In this document: one piece after another, positions 945-49,134 of the stretch
Position numbering within the stretch: position 1 is the stretch's first letter
Layout: every line of letters begins with the position of its first letter
Assembly: GCF_003018255.1 (NCBI RefSeq)
Contig: NZ_CP027440.1
Strand: one strand, 5' to 3'
From: Escherichia coli
Lineage (GTDB): Bacteria; Pseudomonadota; Gammaproteobacteria; Enterobacterales; Enterobacteriaceae
Length of the DNA: 64,000 nt
Position numbers and translations under genes: made by a program
The notes under the pieces: generated by a model
Seen by the model: only the letters and a program-made list of their open reading frames with translations
The model's database searches: none
What the model was told of the DNA's origin: nothing

Positions 945-3227
945 TTACATAGATTGAGTGAAGGTACGAGTAATAACGTCCTGCTGCTGTTCTTTAGTCA
1001 GCGAGTTGAAACGTACTGCGTAGCCAGATACACGGATGGTCAGCTGCGGATATTTTTCCGGGTTTTCCATCGCGTCGAGCAGCATTTCACGGTTCATCAC
1101 GTTAACGTTCAGGTGCTGACCACCTTCGATGGACGCTTCGTGGTGGAAGTAACCATCCATCAGACCAGCCAGGTTGGTCTTACGAACTTCGTCGTCTTTA
1201 CCCAGTGCGTTCGGAACGATAGAGAAGGTGTAGGAGATACCATCTTTAGCGTAAGCAAATGGCAGTTTAGCAACGGAAGTCAGAGAGGCTACTGCACCTT
1301 TCTGGTCACGACCGTGCATCGGGTTAGCACCCGGTCCGAACGGCGCGCCAGCACGACGACCGTCTGGGGTGTTACCAGTTTTCTTACCATACACAACGTT
1401 AGAAGTGATGGTCAGAACAGACTGAGTCGGGATAGCGTCACGGTAGGTGTGCAGTTTCTGAATTTTCTTCATGAAACGTTCTACCAGGTCAACAGCCAGG
1501 TCATCTACACGCGGATCGTTGTTACCAAACTGCGGGTATTCGCCTTCGATTTCGAAGTCGATAGCCAGACCGTCTTCGTCACGAATCGGTTTAACTTTCG
1601 CATATTTGATTGCAGACAGGGAGTCAGCAGCAACGGACAGACCAGCGATACCACACGCCATGGTGCGGATAACGTCACGGTCGTGCAGCGCCATCAGAGA
1701 GGCTTCGTAGCTGTACTTGTCGTGCATGTAGTGGATGATGTTCAGTGCAGTGATGTACTGTTTAGCCAGCCAGTCCATGAAGTGATCCATGCGCTCCATC
1801 ACTTCATCGTAGTTCAGGAGATCGCCTTTGATCGGCTCAGACTTCGGACCAACCTGCATTTTCAGTTTTTCGTCAACGCCGCCGTTGATTGCGTACAGCA
1901 TGGTTTTCGCCAGGTTTGCACGCGCACCGAAGAACTGCATTTGTTTACCAACGATCATCGGGCTTACGCAGCAAGCGATAGCGTAGTCATCGTTGTTGAA
2001 GTCCGGACGCATCAGGTCATCGTTCTCATACTGCAGAGAAGAGGTGTCGATGGACACTTTAGCAGCGAATTTCTTGAAGTTCAGCGGCAGTTTTTCGGAC
2101 CACAGAATGGTCATGTTCGGTTCCGGAGACGGACCCATGGTGTACAGGGTGTTCAGGAAACGGAAGCTGTTTTTGGTAACCAGGGTACGACCGTCGAGGC
2201 CCATACCACCGATAGATTCGGTTGCCCAGATCGGGTCGCCAGAGAACAGTTCATCGTATTCCGGAGTACGCAGGAAGCGAACCATACGCAGTTTCATGAC
2301 CAGGTGGTCAACCATTTCCTGCGCTTCTTGTTCGGTGATCTTGCCAGCTTTCAGGTCACGTTCGATGTACACATCCAGGAAGGTGGAGGTACGACCGAAG
2401 GACATTGCAGCACCGTTCTGAGACTTAACAGCAGCCAGGTAGCCGAAGTAAGTCCACTGGATAGCTTCCTGAGCGTTGGTAGCCGGACCAGAGATGTCGT
2501 AGCCGTATTTCGCAGCCATTTCTTTCATCTGACCCAGAGCGCGGTGCTGTTCAGCGATTTCTTCGCGCAGACGGATAGTCTGTTCCAGGTTTACGCCGTT
2601 TTCCAGATCAGCCTGCAGAGAGGTGAACTGAGCGTATTTGTCTTTCATCAGATAGTCGATACCGTACAGCGCAACGCGACGGTAGTCACCGATGATACGA
2701 CCACGGCCATAAGCATCTGGCAGACCGGTCAGAACACCGGATTTACGGCAACGCAGGATGTCCGGAGTGTAAACGTCGAACACGCCCTGGTTGTGAGTTT
2801 TACGGTATTCAGTGAAGATTTTTTTGATCATCGGGTCCAGTTCGCGGTTGTACGCTTTGCAGGAACCTTCGATCATTTTGATACCACCGAACGGGATAAG
2901 AGCACGTTTCAGCGGAGCTTCAGTCTGCAGACCAACAACTTTTTCCAACGCTTTGTTGATGTAGCCAGCGTCGTGAGAGGTGATGGTGGAAGCAACAGCG
3001 GTGTCAAAGTCAACTGGCGCGTGAGTGCGGTTTTCCAGTTTAACGCCTTCCATTACTTTGTCCCACAGGGTGGTGGTCGCTTCAGTAGCGCCAGCCAGGA
3101 AGGACTCGTCACCCTCGTACGGAGTGTAGTTTTTCTGAATGAAGTCACGGACGTTTACTTCATTCTGCCAGTCACCTTTGGTAAAACCTTCCCAGGCTGT
3201 GGCTAACTTTTCATTAAGCTCGGACAT
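945..3227 (-). CDS. pflB: pyruvate formate-lyase (formate C-acetyltransferase 1)
   Basis: 760-aa ORF; translation matches PflB over full length including the C-terminal glycyl-radical region. Confidence 0.97.
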
Positions 3228-3281
3228 GTAACACCTACCTTCTTAAGTGGATTTTTTATTTACTGCGTACTTCGACAACCA

Positions 3282-4139
3282 TTAATGGTGATCGTTTTCA
3301 CGCAGATAAATGACCCAGTATGTCAACCCAACCAACAAACCACCGCCGATAATATTACCGATCGTAACCGGAATCAGGTTATCAGTGATGAAGTTCATCA
3401 CGGTCAGGTGAGAAAAATTTTCCGGTGCAGAACCGACAGCGGTCCAGAATTCCGGAGATGCGAAGTCGCGGATTACAATACCCATCGGGATCATAAACAT
3501 GTTTGCGATACTGTGCTCAAAACCGCTGGCAACAAACATCGCGACCGGCAGCACCATAATGAACGCTTTATCCATCAGGCTGCGGCCAGAATAACTCATC
3601 CATACTGCCAGACATACCATCAGGTTTGCCAGGATACCAAGACAGACGGCCTCAATAAAAGTATGGTGCACTTTGTGGTCGGCGGTTTGTAGGACGTTTA
3701 GTCCCCATTGACCATTCGCGGTCATATACTCGCCGGAAAGCCACATTAAAAGTACAAACAGCAGTGCGCCGACCAGGTTGCCAAAATAGACATTTAGCCA
3801 GTTTTTCGCTAACTGACCCCAGGTGATGCGCCCACTCGCCTTAGCAACAACAATCAACACTGTGGAAGTAAAGAGATCGGCTCCGCAGACAACACAAAGA
3901 ATCAGCCCCAGAGAGAAGCAAATGCCGCCAACCAGTTTTGCCATGCCGAAGGGCATTGTTCCTGTGCCAGTGGTTGCTGTGATATAGAAGACGAATGCGA
4001 TTGAGATGAAAACACCGGCGGTAATCGCCAGATAGAAAGTCTTAAGCGGATGTTTCGTTGCTTTATAGACACCTGCCTCTTCGGCCACTTTGGCCATTGC
4101 TGCAGGAAGTAAAAGATCAAAAGGGTTGTCAGCTTTCAC
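3282..4139 (-). CDS. focA: formate channel FocA (formate/nitrite transporter family)
   Basis: ORF 3282..4478 extends upstream into AT-rich promoter DNA; known FocA N-terminus (MKADNPFDLL...) corresponds to the GTG codon at 4137-4139, giving 285 aa. Confidence 0.9.
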   Translation of the reverse strand: MKADNPFDLLLPAAMAKVAEEAGVYKATKHPLKTFYLAITAGVFISIAFVFYITATTGTGTMPFGMAKLVGGICFSLGLILCVVCGADLFTSTVLIVVAKASGRITWGQLAKNWLNVYFGNLVGALLFVLLMWLSGEYMTANGQWGLNVLQTADHKVHHTFIEAVCLGILANLMVCLAVWMSYSGRSLMDKAFIMVLPVAMFVASGFEHSIANMFMIPMGIVIRDFASPEFWTAVGSAPENFSHLTVMNFITDNLIPVTIGNIIGGGLLVGLTYWVIYLRENDHH

Positions 4140-4198
4140 ACTAACTCTCTCTTTATTAAGTCGGCGACGAGATACTAACAAAGCATTATAGATGAGAA

Positions 4199-4212
4199 AT
4201 TGATATAGATCA
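4199..4212 (-). promoter_or_regulatory. FNR-type operator in the focA-pflB promoter region
   Basis: Sequence TTGATATAGATCAT fits the FNR consensus TTGAT-N4-ATCAA; ~60 nt upstream of the focA start in a 400-bp AT-rich regulatory region. Confidence 0.5.
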
Positions 4213-4544
4213 TATCTCGCCTGGCTTATAGGCCCGTAACTCGCATGGTTTTTATGCAAATACGGAGTAAATATTTGATTATCCAAATAAAAATAAATTT
4301 TAAAAATTAACAAATGAGTTGAATTTTTTCCGCATCCTCCGCTAAAACAGTTAATTAAAAGGGAGCACCAGGCGAATAAAGTAACAATATCGATCGTATT
4401 TATTAAATACAAATTACCGATATTTAACTTTATAATTACAATTATTTTATTAATGCAAATATATGTAAAGCGGGGCATTAAAAAAACGCCCCGTAATATA
4501 ACTCAGACGAATCATTAAGCCTACATTGCGTAGGCTATTTGATT

Positions 4545-6305
4545 TTATTTTGCCCAGAATGCTGCTTTGGCGCGCTGCAGCTTTTCGTAGGCCTTCAACA
4601 ACGACTGATGTGCAGCAAACGCGTGCAGATCGCTATCTACTGGTTGCAAACCATAAAACGCCGCTTCGCCGCTCATTGCCGCACTGGCGGCTTCCACGGC
4701 ATCTGCGCCGTACATGCGAACAAACGCATTCAGATATTGCAGCGGCTGGCGATCTTCTTCCTGCGCCAGTAATAACAACGTTTGCAGGCAGCGATAATAG
4801 TTGGCGCGTTCCGGGCTGAATACCGATGAGTTAAACTCCATCGTCCATTCGGTCCAGACCAGAGCCTGTTCCAGATCGCCACCAGCCAGCGCCAGCATGG
4901 CTTTTAATTCACCGATACGCAGGGTGTACCAACCGTTATCCGACCCGGTCGCCAGACCCAACAGCTCACGCACGCGGGTAAAGTCATCAAAACCTTCTTC
5001 ATCCAGTTGCTCGATGAGGTTCAGGTAATCTTCTTTTTCCCACTCGCTGCCTGGTAACGAAAGAATCGTTTCACGTAAATGGCTGCCCATACTGTTATTC
5101 GCCAGCCACAGATCTTCAGCCGGATAAATATCGGACATGCCAGGCACGATAATTCGGCAAGCATAAACGCCCAGATGCTCGTAATCGGCAATATAAACTT
5201 CTTTATCTTCTTTGTTGAAGATAGCCATCAGCGTAGCAAACTCTTCTTCCGTAGTGCCGGAGAAATTCCAGTCCACAAACGGATAATCGGCATCCTGCTT
5301 GAACAGGTCCCAGGAGATTAAACCGCTGGAATCGATAAAGTGCGTTTCGAGGTTGGTATGTTCAGCAACTTCTTCATCATCGAAGGTTGGCGGAGTAAAC
5401 ACATCCAAATCTTTCAGGCCACGACCTTGCAGCAGCTCGGTCACGGTACGTTCCAGTGCTACGCCAAAATCAGGATGCGCACCGAAAGAGGCAAAGCAGG
5501 TACCGTTAGCAGGATTGAACAGTACCACGCAAATCACCGGATACTGGCCGCCAAGCGAACCATCATAAGCAAAGATTGGGAAACCTTCTGCTTCCAGCGT
5601 TTCGATGGCTTCAACCACCGCTGGGTAACGCGCCAGCACGTCTGCCGGGATTTCCGGCAAGCTGATGCTTTCAGCAATAATGCGGTTTTTCACGTAGCGT
5701 TCGAAAACTTCGGACAACCCCTGAACGCGTGCTTCGTTACGGGTATTGCCAGCGGACATACCGTTAGAAACATACAGGTTACCAATGATATTCATCGGAA
5801 TATAAACGGTCTGATTATCAGACTGACGCGTAAACGGCAGACCGCAAATACCACGATCTTCGTTACCGGATTGCAGGTCAATCAGCATACTGCCGGCCAG
5901 TTCATTCTCCGGATCGTAAAATGCGCGCAGACGGTCATCGAGCAGCCCTTCTGGCACATCGTCATTTTCGCTCAGTGGGAACCATTTTTCGTTGGGATAA
6001 TGCACGAACGGACCGTTGGCGATGGTTTCGCCCAGCCAGAAATCAGCAAAAAAGTAGTTGGTTGAGAGACGCTCGAAATATTCACCGAGTGCAGAAGCCA
6101 GCGCCGCTTTTTTGGTTGCGCCTTTACCGTTGGTAAAACACAGTGCGCACTCTTTGTCGCGAATATGTACAGACCAGACGTTAGGCACCGGATTCAGCCA
6201 GGAGGCCTCTTCAATCTGAAAGCCGAGGTCTGAAAGTTTTTGCTGGAAGCGAGCGATGGAATCTTCCAGTGCGGCATCTTTGCCGGGGATAAATGTTTGC
6301 GTCAT
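4545..6305 (-). CDS. ycaO: YcaO-domain protein (ATP-dependent, ribosomal protein S12 methylthiolation accessory factor)
   Basis: ORF 4545..6338; known YcaO N-terminus MTQTFIPGKD at internal ATG 6303-6305, giving 586 aa. Confidence 0.93.
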   Translation of the reverse strand: MTQTFIPGKDAALEDSIARFQQKLSDLGFQIEEASWLNPVPNVWSVHIRDKECALCFTNGKGATKKAALASALGEYFERLSTNYFFADFWLGETIANGPFVHYPNEKWFPLSENDDVPEGLLDDRLRAFYDPENELAGSMLIDLQSGNEDRGICGLPFTRQSDNQTVYIPMNIIGNLYVSNGMSAGNTRNEARVQGLSEVFERYVKNRIIAESISLPEIPADVLARYPAVVEAIETLEAEGFPIFAYDGSLGGQYPVICVVLFNPANGTCFASFGAHPDFGVALERTVTELLQGRGLKDLDVFTPPTFDDEEVAEHTNLETHFIDSSGLISWDLFKQDADYPFVDWNFSGTTEEEFATLMAIFNKEDKEVYIADYEHLGVYACRIIVPGMSDIYPAEDLWLANNSMGSHLRETILSLPGSEWEKEDYLNLIEQLDEEGFDDFTRVRELLGLATGSDNGWYTLRIGELKAMLALAGGDLEQALVWTEWTMEFNSSVFSPERANYYRCLQTLLLLAQEEDRQPLQYLNAFVRMYGADAVEAASAAMSGEAAFYGLQPVDSDLHAFAAHQSLLKAYEKLQRAKAAFWAK

Positions 6306-6434
6306 GAAAATCACTTTAGTCGTACGGAAAGCGCGCAATAATACGGGTTTTATCTCAAAGGCGCTATCACCGCCGCCATGCCGATGATCTGTTGACTATG
6401 CTTTTAGCGGATAAACCACGATAAGAGCATATAA

Positions 6435-7127
6435 ATGAAGGCGTTCGATCTCCACCGTATGGCATTTGATAAAGTGCCTTTTGATTTCCTTGGCGAAGTG
6501 GCACTACGTAGTCTTTATACCTTTGTACTGGTTTTTTTGTTCCTCAAAATGACCGGAAGACGCGGTGTGCGGCAGATGTCGCTTTTTGAAGTGTTAATCA
6601 TTCTGACGCTGGGATCAGCGGCGGGAGATGTGGCGTTTTATGATGATGTGCCGATGGTCCCGGTACTTATCGTCTTTATTATTCTGGCGTTGTTATACCG
6701 CCTGGTAATGTGGTTGATGGCGCACAGTGAAAAACTGGAAGATCTTCTGGAAGGCAAGCCGGTTGTCATTATTGAAGATGGCGAGCTGGCCTGGTCGAAA
6801 CTCAATAACTCCAACATGACGGAATTTGAGTTCTTTATGGAGCTACGATTGCGCGGTGTAGAGCAGTTGGGGCAAGTACGTCTGGCGATTCTCGAAACCA
6901 ACGGGCAAATCAGTGTCTATTTCTTTGAAGATGACAAGGTGAAACCGGGCTTACTTATTTTACCCAGTGACTGTACTCAGCGTTACAAAGTGGTACCCGA
7001 GTCGGCGGACTATGCCTGCATTCGTTGCAGTGAAATCATTCATATGAACGCGGGGGAAAAACAATTATGTCCGCGCTGTGCAAATCCAGAATGGACGAAG
7101 GCAAGTCGGGCAAAACGGGTGACGTGA
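6435..7127 (+). CDS. ycaP: DUF421 inner-membrane protein YcaP
   Basis: 230-aa ORF with hydrophobic N-terminal segments; matches YcaP. Confidence 0.88.
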   Translation: MKAFDLHRMAFDKVPFDFLGEVALRSLYTFVLVFLFLKMTGRRGVRQMSLFEVLIILTLGSAAGDVAFYDDVPMVPVLIVFIILALLYRLVMWLMAHSEKLEDLLEGKPVVIIEDGELAWSKLNNSNMTEFEFFMELRLRGVEQLGQVRLAILETNGQISVYFFEDDKVKPGLLILPSDCTQRYKVVPESADYACIRCSEIIHMNAGEKQLCPRCANPEWTKASRAKRVT

Positions 7128-7325
7128 CAGTAAAAACATCGGCTTTTTGCTAATAATCCGAGAGATTCTTTTGTGTGATGCAAGCCACATTTTTGCCCTC
7201 AACGGTTTTACTCATTGCGATGTGTGTCACTGAATGATAAAACCGATAGCCACAGGAATAATGTATTACCTGTGGTCGCAATCGATTGACCGCGGGTTAA
7301 TAGCAACGCAACGTGGTGAGGGGAA

Positions 7326-8414
7326 ATGGCTCAAATCTTCAATTTTAGTTCTGGTCCGGCAATGCTACCGGCAGAGGTGCTTAAACAGGCTCAACAGGAA
7401 CTGCGCGACTGGAACGGTCTTGGTACGTCGGTGATGGAAGTGAGTCACCGTGGCAAAGAGTTCATTCAGGTTGCAGAGGAAGCCGAGAAGGATTTTCGCG
7501 ATCTTCTTAATGTCCCCTCCAACTACAAGGTATTGTTCTGCCATGGCGGCGGTCGCGGTCAGTTTGCTGCTGTTCCGCTGAATATTCTCGGTGATAAAAC
7601 CACCGCAGATTATGTTGATGCCGGTTACTGGGCGGCAAGTGCCATTAAAGAAGCGAAAAAATACTGCACGCCTAATGTCTTTGACGCCAAAGTGACTGTT
7701 GATGGTCTGCGCGCGGTTAAGCCAATGCGCGAATGGCAACTCTCTGATAATGCTGCTTATATGCATTACTGCCCGAATGAAACCATCGACGGTATCGCTA
7801 TCGACGAAACGCCAGACTTCGGCAAAGATGTGGTGGTCGCCGCCGACTTCTCTTCAACCATTCTTTCCCGTCCGATTGACGTCAGCCGTTATGGCGTGAT
7901 TTACGCTGGCGCGCAGAAAAATATCGGCCCGGCTGGCCTGACAATCGTCATCGTTCGTGAAGATTTGCTGGGCAAAGCGAATATCGCGTGTCCGTCGATT
8001 CTGGATTATTCCATTCTCAACGATAACGACTCCATGTTTAACACGCCGCCGACATTTGCCTGGTATCTGTCTGGTCTGGTCTTTAAATGGCTGAAAGCGA
8101 ACGGCGGTGTAGCTGCAATGGATAAAATCAATCAGCAAAAAGCAGAACTGCTGTATGGGGTGATTGATAACAGCAATTTCTACCGCAATGACGTGGCGAA
8201 AGCTAACCGTTCGCGGATGAACGTGCCGTTCCAGTTGGCGGACAGTGCGCTTGACAAATTGTTCCTTGAAGAGTCTTTTGCTGCTGGCCTTCATGCGCTG
8301 AAAGGTCACCGTGTGGTCGGCGGAATGCGCGCGTCTATTTATAACGCCATGCCGCTGGAAGGCGTTAAAGCCCTGACAGACTTCATGGTTGAGTTCGAAC
8401 GCCGTCACGGCTAA
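7326..8414 (+). CDS. serC: phosphoserine/phosphohydroxythreonine aminotransferase
   Basis: 362-aa ORF; translation matches SerC (PLP-dependent class V aminotransferase). Confidence 0.97.
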
Positions 8415-8433
8415 TGCCGAAATTTTGCTTAAT

Positions 8434-8463
8434 CCCCACAGCCAGCCTGTGGGGTTTTTATTT
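8434..8463 (+). terminator. intra-operon Rho-independent terminator/attenuator between serC and aroA
   Basis: Perfect hairpin ccccacaggc...gcctgtgggg (8434-8454) followed by TTTTTATTT. Confidence 0.6.
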
Positions 8464-8484
8464 CTGTTGTAGAGAGTTGAGTTC

Positions 8485-9768
8485 ATGGAATCCCTGACGT
8501 TACAACCCATCGCTCGTGTCGATGGCACTATTAATCTGCCTGGTTCCAAGAGCGTTTCTAACCGCGCTTTATTGCTGGCGGCATTAGCACACGGCAAAAC
8601 AGTATTAACCAATCTGCTGGATAGCGATGACGTGCGCCATATGCTGAATGCATTAACAGCGTTAGGGGTAAGCTATACGCTTTCAGCCGATCGTACGCGT
8701 TGCGAAATTATCGGTAACGGCGGTCCATTACACGCAGAAGGTGCCCTGGAGTTGTTCCTCGGAAACGCCGGAACGGCAATGCGCCCGCTGGCGGCAGCTC
8801 TTTGTCTGGGTAGCAATGATATTGTGCTGACTGGTGAGCCGCGTATGAAAGAGCGCCCGATTGGTCATCTGGTGGATGCGCTGCGCCTGGGCGGGGCGAA
8901 GATCACTTACCTGGAACAAGACAATTATCCGCCATTGCGTTTACAGGGCGGCTTTACTGGCGGCAACGTTGACGTTGATGGCTCCGTTTCCAGCCAGTTC
9001 CTCACCGCACTATTAATGACTGCGCCTCTTGCACCGGAAGATACGGTGATTCGTATTAAAGGCGATCTGGTTTCTAAACCTTATATCGACATCACACTCA
9101 ATATGATGAAGACGTTTGGTGTTGAAATTGAAAATCAGCACTATCAACAATTTGTCGTAAAAGGCGGGCAGTCTTATCAGTCTCCGGGTACTTATTTGGT
9201 CGAAGGCGATGCATCTTCGGCTTCTTACTTCCTGGCAGCAGCAGCAATCAAAGGCGGCACTGTAAAAGTGACCGGCATTGGACGCAACAGTATGCAGGGT
9301 GATATTCGCTTTGCTGATGTGCTGGAAAAAATGGGCGCGACCATTTGCTGGGGCGATGATTATATTTCCTGCACGCGGGGTGAACTGAACGCTATTGATA
9401 TGGATATGAACCATATTCCCGATGCGGCGATGACCATTGCCACGGCGGCGTTATTTGCAAAAGGCACCACCACGCTGCGCAATATCTATAACTGGCGTGT
9501 TAAAGAGACCGATCGCCTGTTTGCGATGGCAACAGAACTGCGTAAAGTTGGTGCGGAAGTAGAAGAGGGGCACGATTACATTCGTATCACTCCACCGGAA
9601 AAGCTGAACTTTGCCGAGATCGCGACATACAATGATCACCGGATAGCGATGTGTTTCTCGCTGGTGGCGTTGTCAGATACACCAGTGACGATTCTTGATC
9701 CCAAATGCACGGCCAAAACATTTCCGAATTATTTCGAGCAGCTGGCGCGGATTAGCCAGGCAGCCTGA
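8485..9768 (+). CDS. aroA: 3-phosphoshikimate 1-carboxyvinyltransferase (EPSP synthase)
   Basis: 427-aa ORF; translation matches AroA. Confidence 0.97.
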
Positions 9769-9811
9769 ATGAACAACGTGCAATAAATAGCCAAATCTTT
9801 CTTTATCAAAA

Positions 9812-9839
9812 CGTCGGCACATTGCCGGCGTTTTTTTTT
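9812..9839 (+). terminator. Rho-independent terminator of serC-aroA
   Basis: Hairpin cgtcggca-cat-tgccggcg followed by nine T. Confidence 0.7.
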
Positions 9840-9937
9840 CGGACCTTGTGAGTCATTTTGATTAATGGTAGCGTCGCTTGTCAATGTAAGTTATTGATAC
9901 ATAATATTTATATATGATTAATCAACGGATGATTCAC

Positions 9938-30490: not shown

Positions 30491-30502
30491 GTGCACAGAA
30501 AA

Positions 30503-30521
30503 CCCCCAGCTAGGCTGGGGG
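30503..30521 (+). repeat. IS200 left-end subterminal hairpin
   Basis: Perfect 8-bp GC stem cccccagc-tag-gctggggg. Confidence 0.6.
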
Positions 30522-30558
30522 TTCCGGAAAGCTTTCAGCTTTGAGCCAGTTATTAAAA

Positions 30559-30627
30559 CCCCTTTTGATTTGTTAAAACACCTTGCGGTCTGGCAACTGC
30601 AAGTGTCAAACAAGAAATCAAAAGGGG
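30559..30627 (+). promoter_or_regulatory. long-range stem sequestering the tnpA ribosome-binding site
   Basis: ccccttttgatt (30559-30570) is exactly complementary to aatcaaaagggg (30616-30627), which contains the Shine-Dalgarno immediately upstream of tnpA ATG 30634; matches the known translational occlusion in IS200. Confidence 0.55.
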
Positions 30628-30633
30628 GTCCCA

Positions 30634-31092
30634 ATGGGGAACGAAAAGAGCTTAGCGCACACCCGATGGAACTGTAAATATCACATAGTTTTTGCGCCAA
30701 AATACCGAAGACAAGTGTTCTACAGAGAGAAGCGTAGAGCAATAGGCAGTATTTTGAGAAAGCTGTGTGAGTGGAAAAGCGTACGGATTCTTGAAGCTGA
30801 ATGCTGTGCAGATCATATCCATATGCTTGTGGAGATCCCGCCCAAAATGAGTGTATCCGGCTTTATGGGATATCTGAAAGGGAAAAGCAGTCTGATGCTT
30901 TACGAGCAGTTTGGTGATTTGAAATTCAAATACAGGAACAGAGAGTTCTGGTGCAGAGGGTACTACGTCGATACGGTGGGTAAGAACACGGCGAAGATAC
31001 AGGATTACATAAAGCACCAGCTTGAAGAGGATAAAATGGGAGAGCAGTTATCGATTCCCTATCCGGGCAGCCCGTTTACGGGCCGTAAGTAA
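30634..31092 (+). CDS. tnpA: IS200/IS605-family transposase TnpA (HUH Y1 single-strand transposase)
   Basis: ORF 30583..31092; start moved to ATG 30634 (MGNEKSLAHTRWNCKYHIVFAPKYRR...) giving 152 aa; HUH motif within DHIHMLVEIP; near-identical to Salmonella IS200 TnpA as recalled. Confidence 0.95.
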   Translation: MGNEKSLAHTRWNCKYHIVFAPKYRRQVFYREKRRAIGSILRKLCEWKSVRILEAECCADHIHMLVEIPPKMSVSGFMGYLKGKSSLMLYEQFGDLKFKYRNREFWCRGYYVDTVGKNTAKIQDYIKHQLEEDKMGEQLSIPYPGSPFTGRK

Positions 31093-43462: not shown

Positions 43463-43609
43463 GCCGGATGCGACGCTTGACGCGTCTTATCAGGCCTACA
43501 AGTCCGTTGAAAATGCTGGTTTTGTAGGCTGGATAAGGCGTTCACGCCGCATCCGGCAGCCGTGCCCAAATGCCTGATGCGACGCTTGACGCGTCTTATC
43601 AGGCCTACA
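43463..43609. repeat. REP elements forming a BIME (three copies in alternating orientation)
   Basis: gccggatgcgacgcttgacgcgtcttatcaggcctaca (43463-43500), inverted copy 43524-43560, near-identical copy 43571-43609; a partial fourth copy follows at 43631-43648; lies between convergent pepN and ssuB. Confidence 0.85.
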
Positions 43610-47887: not shown

Positions 47888-48123
47888 ACTCTCTCCTTAT
47901 AACCAATTGTTCTTGTTTTGTTAACATTGATAACAATTCGGTCAGTCTGACAGAGGGCGTCCGCGAGTCGAAATGATTTATCTGAGGAAGAAAAGCCAAA
48001 AAAAGCATAAAAAAAGCGCAATAAGAAAACGTTTGCTATTTATTGCCGCAGGTCAATTCCCTTTTGGTCCGAACTCGCACATAATACGCCCCCGGTTTGC
48101 ACACCGGGAATCCAGGAGAGTTC
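47888..48123. promoter_or_regulatory. divergent ssuE / pyrD promoter region
   Basis: 236-bp spacer between divergently transcribed ssuE and pyrD; individual operators not resolved by eye. Confidence 0.4.
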
Positions 48124-49134
48124 ATGTACTACCCCTTCGTTCGTAAAGCCCTTTTCCAGCTCGATCCAGAGCGCGCTCATGAGTTTACTTTTCAGCAATT
48201 ACGCCGTATTACCGGAACGCCGTTTGAAGCACTGGTGCGGCAGAAAGTGCCTGCGAAACCTGTTAACTGCATGGGCCTGACGTTTAAAAATCCGCTTGGT
48301 CTGGCAGCCGGTCTTGATAAAGACGGGGAGTGCATTGACGCGTTAGGCGCGATGGGATTTGGATCGATCGAGATCGGTACCGTCACGCCACGTCCCCAGC
48401 CAGGTAATGACAAGCCGCGTCTCTTTCGTCTGGTAGATGCCGAAGGTTTGATCAACCGTATGGGCTTTAATAATCTTGGCGTTGATAACCTCGTAGAGAA
48501 CGTAAAAAAAGCCCATTATGACGGCGTTCTGGGTATTAACATCGGCAAAAATAAAGATACGCCGGTGGAGCAGGGTAAAGATGACTATCTGATTTGTATG
48601 GAAAAAATCTATGCCTATGCGGGATATATCGCCATCAATATTTCATCGCCAAATACCCCAGGATTACGCACACTGCAATATGGCGAAGCGCTGGATGATC
48701 TCTTAACCGCGATTAAAAATAAGCAAAATGATTTGCAAGCGATGCACCATAAATATGTGCCGATCGCAGTGAAGATCGCGCCGGATCTTTCTGAAGAAGA
48801 ATTGATCCAGGTTGCCGATAGTTTAGTTCGCCATAATATTGATGGCGTGATTGCAACCAATACCACGCTCGATCGTTCTCTGGTTCAGGGAATGAAAAAT
48901 TGTGATCAAACCGGTGGCTTAAGTGGTCGTCCGCTTCAGTTAAAAAGCACAGAAATTATTCGCCGCTTGTCACAGGAATTAAACGGTCGCTTACCGATCA
49001 TCGGTGTTGGCGGCATTGATTCGGTTATCGCTGCGCGTGAAAAGATTGCTGCGGGGGCCTCACTGGTGCAAATTTATTCTGGTTTTATTTTTAAAGGTCC
49101 GCCGCTGATTAAAGAAATCGTTACCCATATCTAA
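48124..49134 (+). CDS. pyrD: dihydroorotate dehydrogenase (quinone)
   Basis: ORF 48097..49134; start moved to ATG 48124 ([10 protein letters not shown]...) preceded by CAGGAGAG; 336 aa. Confidence 0.96.

Follow-up and report, generated by a model that had tools for sequence, protein, structure and literature searches.

The locus analyzed here raises the question of what a YcaO protein modifies when neither a substrate nor a partner enzyme is encoded beside its gene. The azoline-forming (TOMM) cyclodehydratases, such as SagD, McbD, and BalhD, share with the E. coli protein the YcaO ATP-grasp-like fold and the amide-activation mechanism, but they modify Cys/Ser/Thr-rich precursors encoded beside them and are accompanied by E1-like/RRE and dehydrogenase partners, all of which are absent at ycaO. 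We examined a 64,000-nucleotide stretch of the Escherichia coli contig NZ_CP027440.1 (the window), in which ycaO and its surroundings comprise the following features.

3282..4139, minus strand: focA, formate channel, the downstream neighbor (Pfam Form_Nir_trans; NCBIfam FocA equivalog, 634 bits)
4140..4544, minus strand: ycaO-focA intergenic region, 405 bp and AT-rich (from sequence), containing the focA-pfl regulatory region and the focA 5' leader
4471..4536, minus strand: two stable hairpins (4518-4536 and 4471-4493) just 3' of the ycaO stop codon, from RNA folding
4545..6305, minus strand: ycaO coding sequence (ORF list, RefSeq, Pfam, NCBIfam, identity to PDB 4Q84, pI, and ATP/Mg residues)
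6306..6434, no strand assigned: divergent ycaO-ycaP intergenic region, 129 bp (from sequence)
6435..7127, plus strand: ycaP, membrane protein of the DUF421/YetF family, the divergent upstream neighbor (Pfam DUF421, YetF_N)

Crystal structures of E. coli YcaO have been available since 2014, and the protein encoded in the window is identical at 584 of 586 positions to the K-12 protein of PDB entry 4Q84. It agrees with K-12 YcaO (UniProt P75838; PDB 4Q84/4Q85/4Q86) in gene, chromosomal position, domains, ATP/Mg residues, and acidic pI, and differs from it in two conservative substitutions, T112S and T137A. Residues S71, E75, E78, E199, E202, R203, and R286 are all present and are invariant in the 78 orthologues compared (79 of 79 in the alignment); six of these (S71, E75, E78, E199, R203, and R286) we take to be the ATP/Mg ligands of the 4Q85 structure. 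Both substitutions fall outside the ATP/Mg residues checked and outside the twelve interface positions mutated in a recent functional study (PMC13063428). The ORF encodes 586 amino acids from an ATG at position 6305, the biologically used start, whereas the longer version of the ORF reaching to a TTG at 6338 is a mechanical extension only. RefSeq has ycaO at the same coordinates in genome NZ_AP045067.1, which is 100% identical to the window over 3500-7500, and the preliminary description of this stretch had thus placed the gene exactly.

Pfam assigns residues 59-391 to the YcaO domain (PF02624, 1.9e-75) and residues 407-581 to the YcaO_C domain, a TPR-like dimerization domain (PF18381, 2.5e-65), and it detects no further domain in the protein, neither RRE nor E1-like. 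The match of the product to the NCBIfam equivalog NF040716 ('YcaO_for_S12') spans profile positions 1-570 of 571 and scores 916.4 bits, where the cut-off is 700. Together with the near identity to 4Q84, this match bears out the earlier naming of the product as the housekeeping E. coli YcaO. The protein is strongly acidic, with 92 Asp and Glu against 42 Lys and Arg residues and a pI of 4.38, the range among 78 orthologues being 4.33-4.89. In a megablast search of 5,426 complete E. coli genomes with the 4-kb segment 3500-7500 as the query, the segment was found in 5,425 genomes, at least 80% of it was covered in 5,419, and two genomes were 100% identical. The gene is therefore a core gene of E. 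coli, and the region holds an ordinary, intact, and canonical ycaO that is already known.

Domain searches of the flanking proteins, which the preliminary description had proposed, identified a formate/nitrite transporter on one side and a DUF421/YetF protein on the other, and the RefSeq annotation, Pfam, and NCBIfam all confirm that the immediate neighbors are focA and ycaP, as it had stated. Farther out lie pflB and pflA past focA, and serC and aroA past ycaP. Among the proteins encoded within 3 kb of ycaO, Pfam and NCBIfam revealed no E1-like protein, dehydrogenase, RRE, or TfuA, and the gene annotation of the whole window likewise contains no TfuA. The flanks thus consist of FocA, PflB, PflA, YcaP, SerC, and AroA, and the reported lack of a dehydrogenase or E1-like partner holds.

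The possibility of an overlooked precursor peptide was examined by collecting all ORFs of 15-120 amino acids within 1545-9305, that is, 3 kb on each side of the gene, and scoring each by its 12-residue segment richest in Cys, Ser, and Thr. Only 15 of the 114 short ORFs lie mostly outside genes; the best Cys/Ser/Thr fraction among them does not exceed 0.42, and none is precursor-like. Two ORFs that reach 0.67 are antisense frames within ycaO. The mean score of the local ORFs (0.323) is close to that of the whole-window background (0.330), and the two distributions match. The absence of an adjacent precursor, noted previously from the sequence, is thereby upheld over 3 kb in both directions, and the reading of ycaO as a stand-alone housekeeping gene is supported.

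An explanation for this isolation is provided by the substrate of the enzyme, since the biochemical function of ycaO was already published in 2026 (PMC13063428). In ribosomal protein uL16, a thioamide linking Met82 to Gly83 in the backbone was first seen by cryo-EM, in a 2-Å map of the ribosome, and by mass spectrometry by Watson et al. 2020, who put forward YcaO as the candidate thioamidating enzyme (PMC7550191). Rice et al. 2026 then demonstrated that E. coli YcaO (EcYcaO) installs this thioamide: it is missing from ribosomes of a ΔycaO strain, co-expression of YcaO makes the modification of uL16 complete, and variants of the ATP site, such as E202A, impair it (PMC13063428). With purified MBP-EcYcaO, thioamidation of full-length uL16 depends on the joint presence of ATP, MgCl2, and Na2S; folded uL16 is bound with a Kd of 9.8 nM, and short peptides of the loop are neither bound nor modified (PMC13063428). 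The orthologues from Klebsiella and Pseudomonas likewise thioamidate uL16, and an acidic pI of about 4.4, complementary to the basic uL16, has been published as a marker of uL16-type YcaO proteins (PMC13063428). The ΔycaO strain alone has no growth defect.

The window itself does not contain rplP, the gene of uL16. In NZ_AP045067.1, the rplP translation (...KPLAVRMGKGKGNVEYW...) includes the Arg81-Met82-Gly83 loop, ...AVR81-M82-G83-KGKG..., and the gene is located at 4,070,998-4,071,408 of the same 4.76-Mb circle that carries ycaO at 1,581,389-1,583,149, so that the two genes are separated by approximately 2.3-2.5 Mb. The features of a uL16-type YcaO are thus found together: the NF040716 assignment, the YcaO and YcaO_C domains, the ATP/Mg residues, the pI, and a cognate uL16 loop in the genome with the identical segment. 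Experimental proof of the activity comes from the K-12 and BL21 enzymes (PMC13063428). Nothing in the window sequence contradicts the same role there, and, judged from sequence, we assign a probability of roughly 0.93 to the reading that the product of ycaO in the window would be a stand-alone ATP-dependent thioamidase of uL16 Met82, with its substrate encoded in trans. No precursor is found beside ycaO because the substrate comes from rplP, a gene of the S10 operon that lies more than 2 Mb from ycaO. The preliminary description had read the gene as stand-alone and without a neighboring partner, which holds; what it lacked was the 2026 finding of a defined substrate, uL16, encoded elsewhere (PMC13063428).

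In the proposed reaction, the acidic surface of YcaO would dock on the basic uL16, and loop residues 70-93 of uL16 would enter the active site, where ATP and Mg2+ would activate the Met82-Gly83 amide. By analogy with other YcaO proteins, an O-phosphorylated hemiorthoamide may form as the intermediate, and the Met82-Gly83 carbonyl oxygen would then be exchanged for sulfur, leaving a thioamide beside the peptidyl-transferase center. The locus can thus serve as a worked example of a YcaO gene without a neighboring precursor, the substrate being a ribosomal protein encoded elsewhere. Since the substrate is supplied in trans, acidic, YcaO_C-bearing stand-alone YcaO proteins should not be flagged as orphan RiPP enzymes in genome mining.

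Comparison with the other YcaO families is consistent with this assignment. The methanogen enzymes that thioamidate a glycine of McrA (TIGR03266; MJ1094, PDB 6PE3) belong to the same YcaO superfamily; they likewise use ATP to exchange a backbone carbonyl oxygen for sulfur, and their target, too, is a folded protein. However, they are usually paired with TfuA, which is missing from E. coli (PMC13063428) and from the vicinity of the orthologues; they lack the C-terminal YcaO_C/TPR-like domain and accept short peptides, whereas EcYcaO requires full-length uL16. The window protein scores only 39 bits with TIGR03266 against a cut-off of 365, and its similarity to 6PE3 is distant (E = 7.6e-4). Its score with the SagD family of TOMM cyclodehydratases, TIGR03604, is similarly low (43.7 bits, cut-off 219.25). 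With the profile of the OsmC/YcaO fusion proteins, TIGR03549, it reaches 681.8 bits where 900 are required; the match covers profile positions 148-722 only and, unlike the fusions, the window protein has no OsmC domain according to Pfam.

Three other readings of the gene were weighed against the thioamidase assignment. The first regards YcaO mainly as an accessory factor for the methylthiolation of Asp88 of uS12 by RimO, and it survives in the product name used by RefSeq and NCBIfam, 'S12 methylthiotransferase accessory factor'. As recounted in PMC13063428, Strader et al. 2011 found that YcaO co-purified with tagged uS12 and that deleting ycaO lowered S12 modification from 99% to 84%, which may reflect a secondary role of YcaO. 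On the other hand, RimO on its own is able to modify an S12 peptide in vitro, and deletion of rimO abolishes the S12 modification fully (PMC13063428). The AlphaFold3 interface scores are 0.31 for YcaO with uS12 and 0.16 for YcaO with RimO, versus 0.8 with uL16 (PMC13063428), and the effect of the ycaO deletion on S12 may be indirect, via ribosome assembly. We consider a principal role in uS12 modification quite improbable, and the product name is best regarded as outdated, a historical label and not the statement of a demonstrated mechanism.

The second reading couples ycaO functionally to the adjacent anaerobic formate genes focA-pflBA, for instance through modification of PflB or through anaerobic metabolism, and it can be judged by the conservation of the gene neighborhood. 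Orthologues were sought in a representative library clustered at 50% identity, and 20 acidic full-length orthologues were aligned; this alignment was used in one scan of species-representative genomes and yielded 80 loci from Enterobacterales, Aeromonas, Pasteurellaceae, Orbaceae, Vibrionaceae, Shewanella, Alteromonadales, Methylophaga, and Bacteriovoracaceae. Clustering of the 848 neighboring ORFs from these loci and the window demonstrated that the recurrent neighbors (focA/pflB/pflA, serC/aroA/cmk, and ycaP) are confined to Enterobacterales and close relatives. In particular, 45 of 78 loci have focA directly 3' of ycaO, with pflB and pflA next in line, and this order, which had been remarked on earlier (PMC7550191), is kept only in Enterobacterales, Aeromonas, and one genome of the Vibrionaceae (Grimontia). 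The linkage is absent from Pasteurellaceae, Orbaceae, Shewanella, Alteromonadales, Methylophaga, and Bacteriovoracaceae, where YcaO itself is still highly conserved.

The upstream neighbor is even less constant. The ycaP gene adjoins ycaO in just 17 of 78 loci; in several other genera it is missing or an asparaginase gene takes its place, the latter arrangement upstream of ycaO being seen in Yersiniaceae, Hafniaceae, Morganellaceae, and Budviciaceae. In the remaining lineages, the neighbors of ycaO are housekeeping genes unrelated to it, which encode GloB, HemA, a methyltransferase, a DUF1508 protein, an RRM protein, a GNAT or TetR protein, an AroE-like protein, or TsaD, and four distant representatives proved to have unrelated neighborhoods. 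None of these proteins, the asparaginase included, is plausible as a YcaO partner; ycaP is not a conserved partner either, and focA is tied to ycaO through synteny only and is no partner of YcaO. Across all 80 loci, no E1-like, dehydrogenase, RRE, or TfuA gene recurs beside a ycaO orthologue.

The DNA between ycaO and focA also argues against coupling. Folding of the minus-strand RNA from 4440-4550 gave -31 kcal/mol with z = -4.0, and none of 200 shuffled sequences was as stable. The hairpin at 4471-4493 is G+C-rich and is followed by a U-rich tract, and that at 4518-4536 was also detected by a terminator scan, on the plus strand. The two hairpins together likely constitute a predicted terminator of ycaO that parts it from the focA promoters, and their stability 3' of the stop codon is consistent with a monocistronic ycaO insulated from these promoters. 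Likewise, transcription of focA-pfl is reported as independent of ycaO in the account that PMC7550191 gives of Sawers 2005. On the other side of the gene, the 129-bp divergent region presumably holds the promoters of both ycaO and ycaP; a promoter consensus scan, which overall gave fewer promoter-like sites than shuffled controls, called none in 6306-6434. An Rfam scan of the whole window produced no match near ycaO.

Two further observations bear on the link with anaerobic metabolism. The uL16 thioamide is present in cells grown aerobically (PMC7550191), and a proteome-wide interaction screen for YcaO returned only uL16, uL29, and YcaO itself (PMC13063428). A functional tie to the formate genes is therefore highly improbable, despite the synteny.

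The last reading supposes a cryptic RiPP system, in which the target of YcaO would be a short, overlooked peptide from the intergenic DNA on either side of the gene. Short ORFs do occur in the 405-bp gap between ycaO and focA and in the gap between ycaP and serC, and when 952 short ORFs lying between the genes of 78 orthologous loci were clustered, some of them proved to recur, the largest cluster comprising 18 loci. All the clusters are confined to Enterobacterales. Their members occupy overlapping frames of either strand, vary in ends and length, and are poor in Cys/Ser/Thr (fractions of 0.05-0.3). They coincide with the promoter and 5' leader of focA and with the region upstream of serC, a pattern characteristic of conserved regulatory DNA and not of a precursor peptide; they were accordingly rejected as coding sequences, and the interval 4140-4544 is without a real precursor gene. 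As these ORFs disappear outside Enterobacterales whereas ycaO persists, the protein falls far below the SagD cut-off, and E1-like, dehydrogenase, and RRE proteins are lacking nearby, a hidden RiPP system has hardly any likelihood. The preliminary description had held that a conserved precursor-like ORF or partner next to ycaO would contradict its interpretation, and none emerged across the 80 loci.

Within the thioamidase assignment, the source of the sulfur deserves separate consideration. Thioamidation of uL16 in vitro required 1 mM sulfide, a non-physiological concentration (PMC13063428), and thus a factor delivering sulfur to YcaO was probably missing from the reaction. A protein family that could fill this role is suggested by the OsmC-YcaO fusions of Halobacteriovorax and other Bacteriovoracaceae, because in these proteins an OsmC domain is joined to the enzyme. 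In a fusion protein of 729 amino acids, the YcaO/YcaO_C part is 54% identical to the window YcaO over its full length, with a pI of about 4.75. The additional N-terminal OsmC domain of approximately 147 residues has three cysteines that are kept without exception (117 of 117 sequences), and in the same 117 sequences the YcaO part is acidic. The fused domain could bear a persulfide or pass sulfide to the YcaO active site in some other way, but it may just as well be a peroxidase without connection to sulfur delivery, and the step from the fusion to a sulfur-relay function is weak.

By extension from the fusions, an OsmC-family thiol protein acting in trans, for example OsmC or YhfA in E. coli, might be the sulfur-delivery partner of the stand-alone uL16-type YcaO proteins, which we consider unlikely. 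When the OsmC domain of the fusions was compared by BLAST with every ORF of the 80 loci, only noise resulted (E >= 2), so that no OsmC protein neighbors an unfused ycaO. The same domain matches E. coli YhfA weakly (23% identity, E = 7e-4), with the two canonical cysteine positions aligned; coming from a single comparison, this match gives too little support for naming YhfA as the YcaO partner. Neither OsmC nor the OsmC-YcaO fusion is mentioned in PMC13063428, and the five searchable papers that name both YcaO and OsmC have neither term in title or abstract. The fusions of the predatory Bacteriovoracales offer one cheap and testable candidate for the sulfur donor. The named entries among the best 120 homologues of the fusion protein belong to Halobacteriovorax, Bacteriovorax, and other Bacteriovoracales/Bdellovibrionales.

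Two unfused orthologues of the E. coli YcaO protein were identified in Bacteriovoracaceae:

L085:6001-7743, unfused YcaO orthologue, Bacteriovoracaceae
L090:6001-7746, unfused YcaO orthologue, Bacteriovoracaceae

Both proteins have a pI of 4.8, show 55-57% identity, and retain the complete set of ATP-site residues. Since the Bacteriovoracaceae belong to the phylum Bdellovibrionota in the NCBI taxonomy, the range of the uL16-type YcaO, as judged from these sequences, exceeds Pseudomonadota as now defined. The RefSeq/NCBIfam product name attached to ycaO at 4545-6305 of the window, "S12 methylthiotransferase accessory factor", misleads annotation transfer.

The protein P0123, encoded at locus L091:5001-7190, and its homologues P0271-P0389 represent the OsmC-YcaO fusions of about 725 aa (TIGR03549), with 54% identity to E. 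coli YcaO. All organism-named entries among the best 120 homologues are from Halobacteriovorax/Bacteriovoracaceae. The YcaO portion of the fusions is acidic, and in 117 of 117 sequences the OsmC domain carries three invariant cysteines. These fusions, absent from the text of PMC13063428 (Rice et al. 2026), may provide a clue to sulfur delivery.

The gene of the YcaO substrate uL16, rplP, belongs to the S10 operon, the first gene of which is rpsJ. In the E. coli genome NZ_AP045067.1, the stretch just past rpsJ (L092) contains rpsL together with two further loci:

L092:21927-22967, sulfur-relay genes tusBCD
L092:32663-33067, yhfA, OsmC-family

The occurrence of tusBCD and yhfA in the same stretch as the S10 operon is probably a coincidence; these rpsJ-side genes are candidates in the search for the sulfur donor. 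Despite 100% identity to NZ_AP045067.1 over positions 3500-7500, coordinates in the window are shifted by +1 for ycaL and later genes, thus indicating a 1-bp indel in the aroA-ycaL gap (approximately 9769-9937), and therefore the window does not represent exactly the strain of NZ_AP045067.1.

In YcaP (6435-7127), Pfam DUF421/YetF covers residues 22-170, and the C-terminal ~40 residues past this region, with no Pfam match, contain a CxxC...CxxC motif (YACIRCSEIIHMNAGEKQLCPRCANPEW) whose sequence resembles a small zinc ribbon. The ycaP-serC intergenic region (7128-7325) includes a nucleotide block conserved in 18 Enterobacterales genomes. Each strand of this block shows pseudo-ORFs that overlap one another, 'RRVSLNDKTDIHRNN' being an example, and the block most likely represents serC regulatory DNA.

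Further elements were found in the window:

30501-31092, IS200C-family transposase gene tnpA, between mukB and ldtD
43527-43605, naRNA4 (nucleoid-associated ncRNA 4, CssrE), pepN-ssuB gap
48056-48129, PyrD leader, immediately 5' of pyrD

The latter two are Rfam gathering-score matches. An Rfam STnc490 match (146 bits) ahead of tnpA is presumably the 5' structured RNA of the IS200C-family element.
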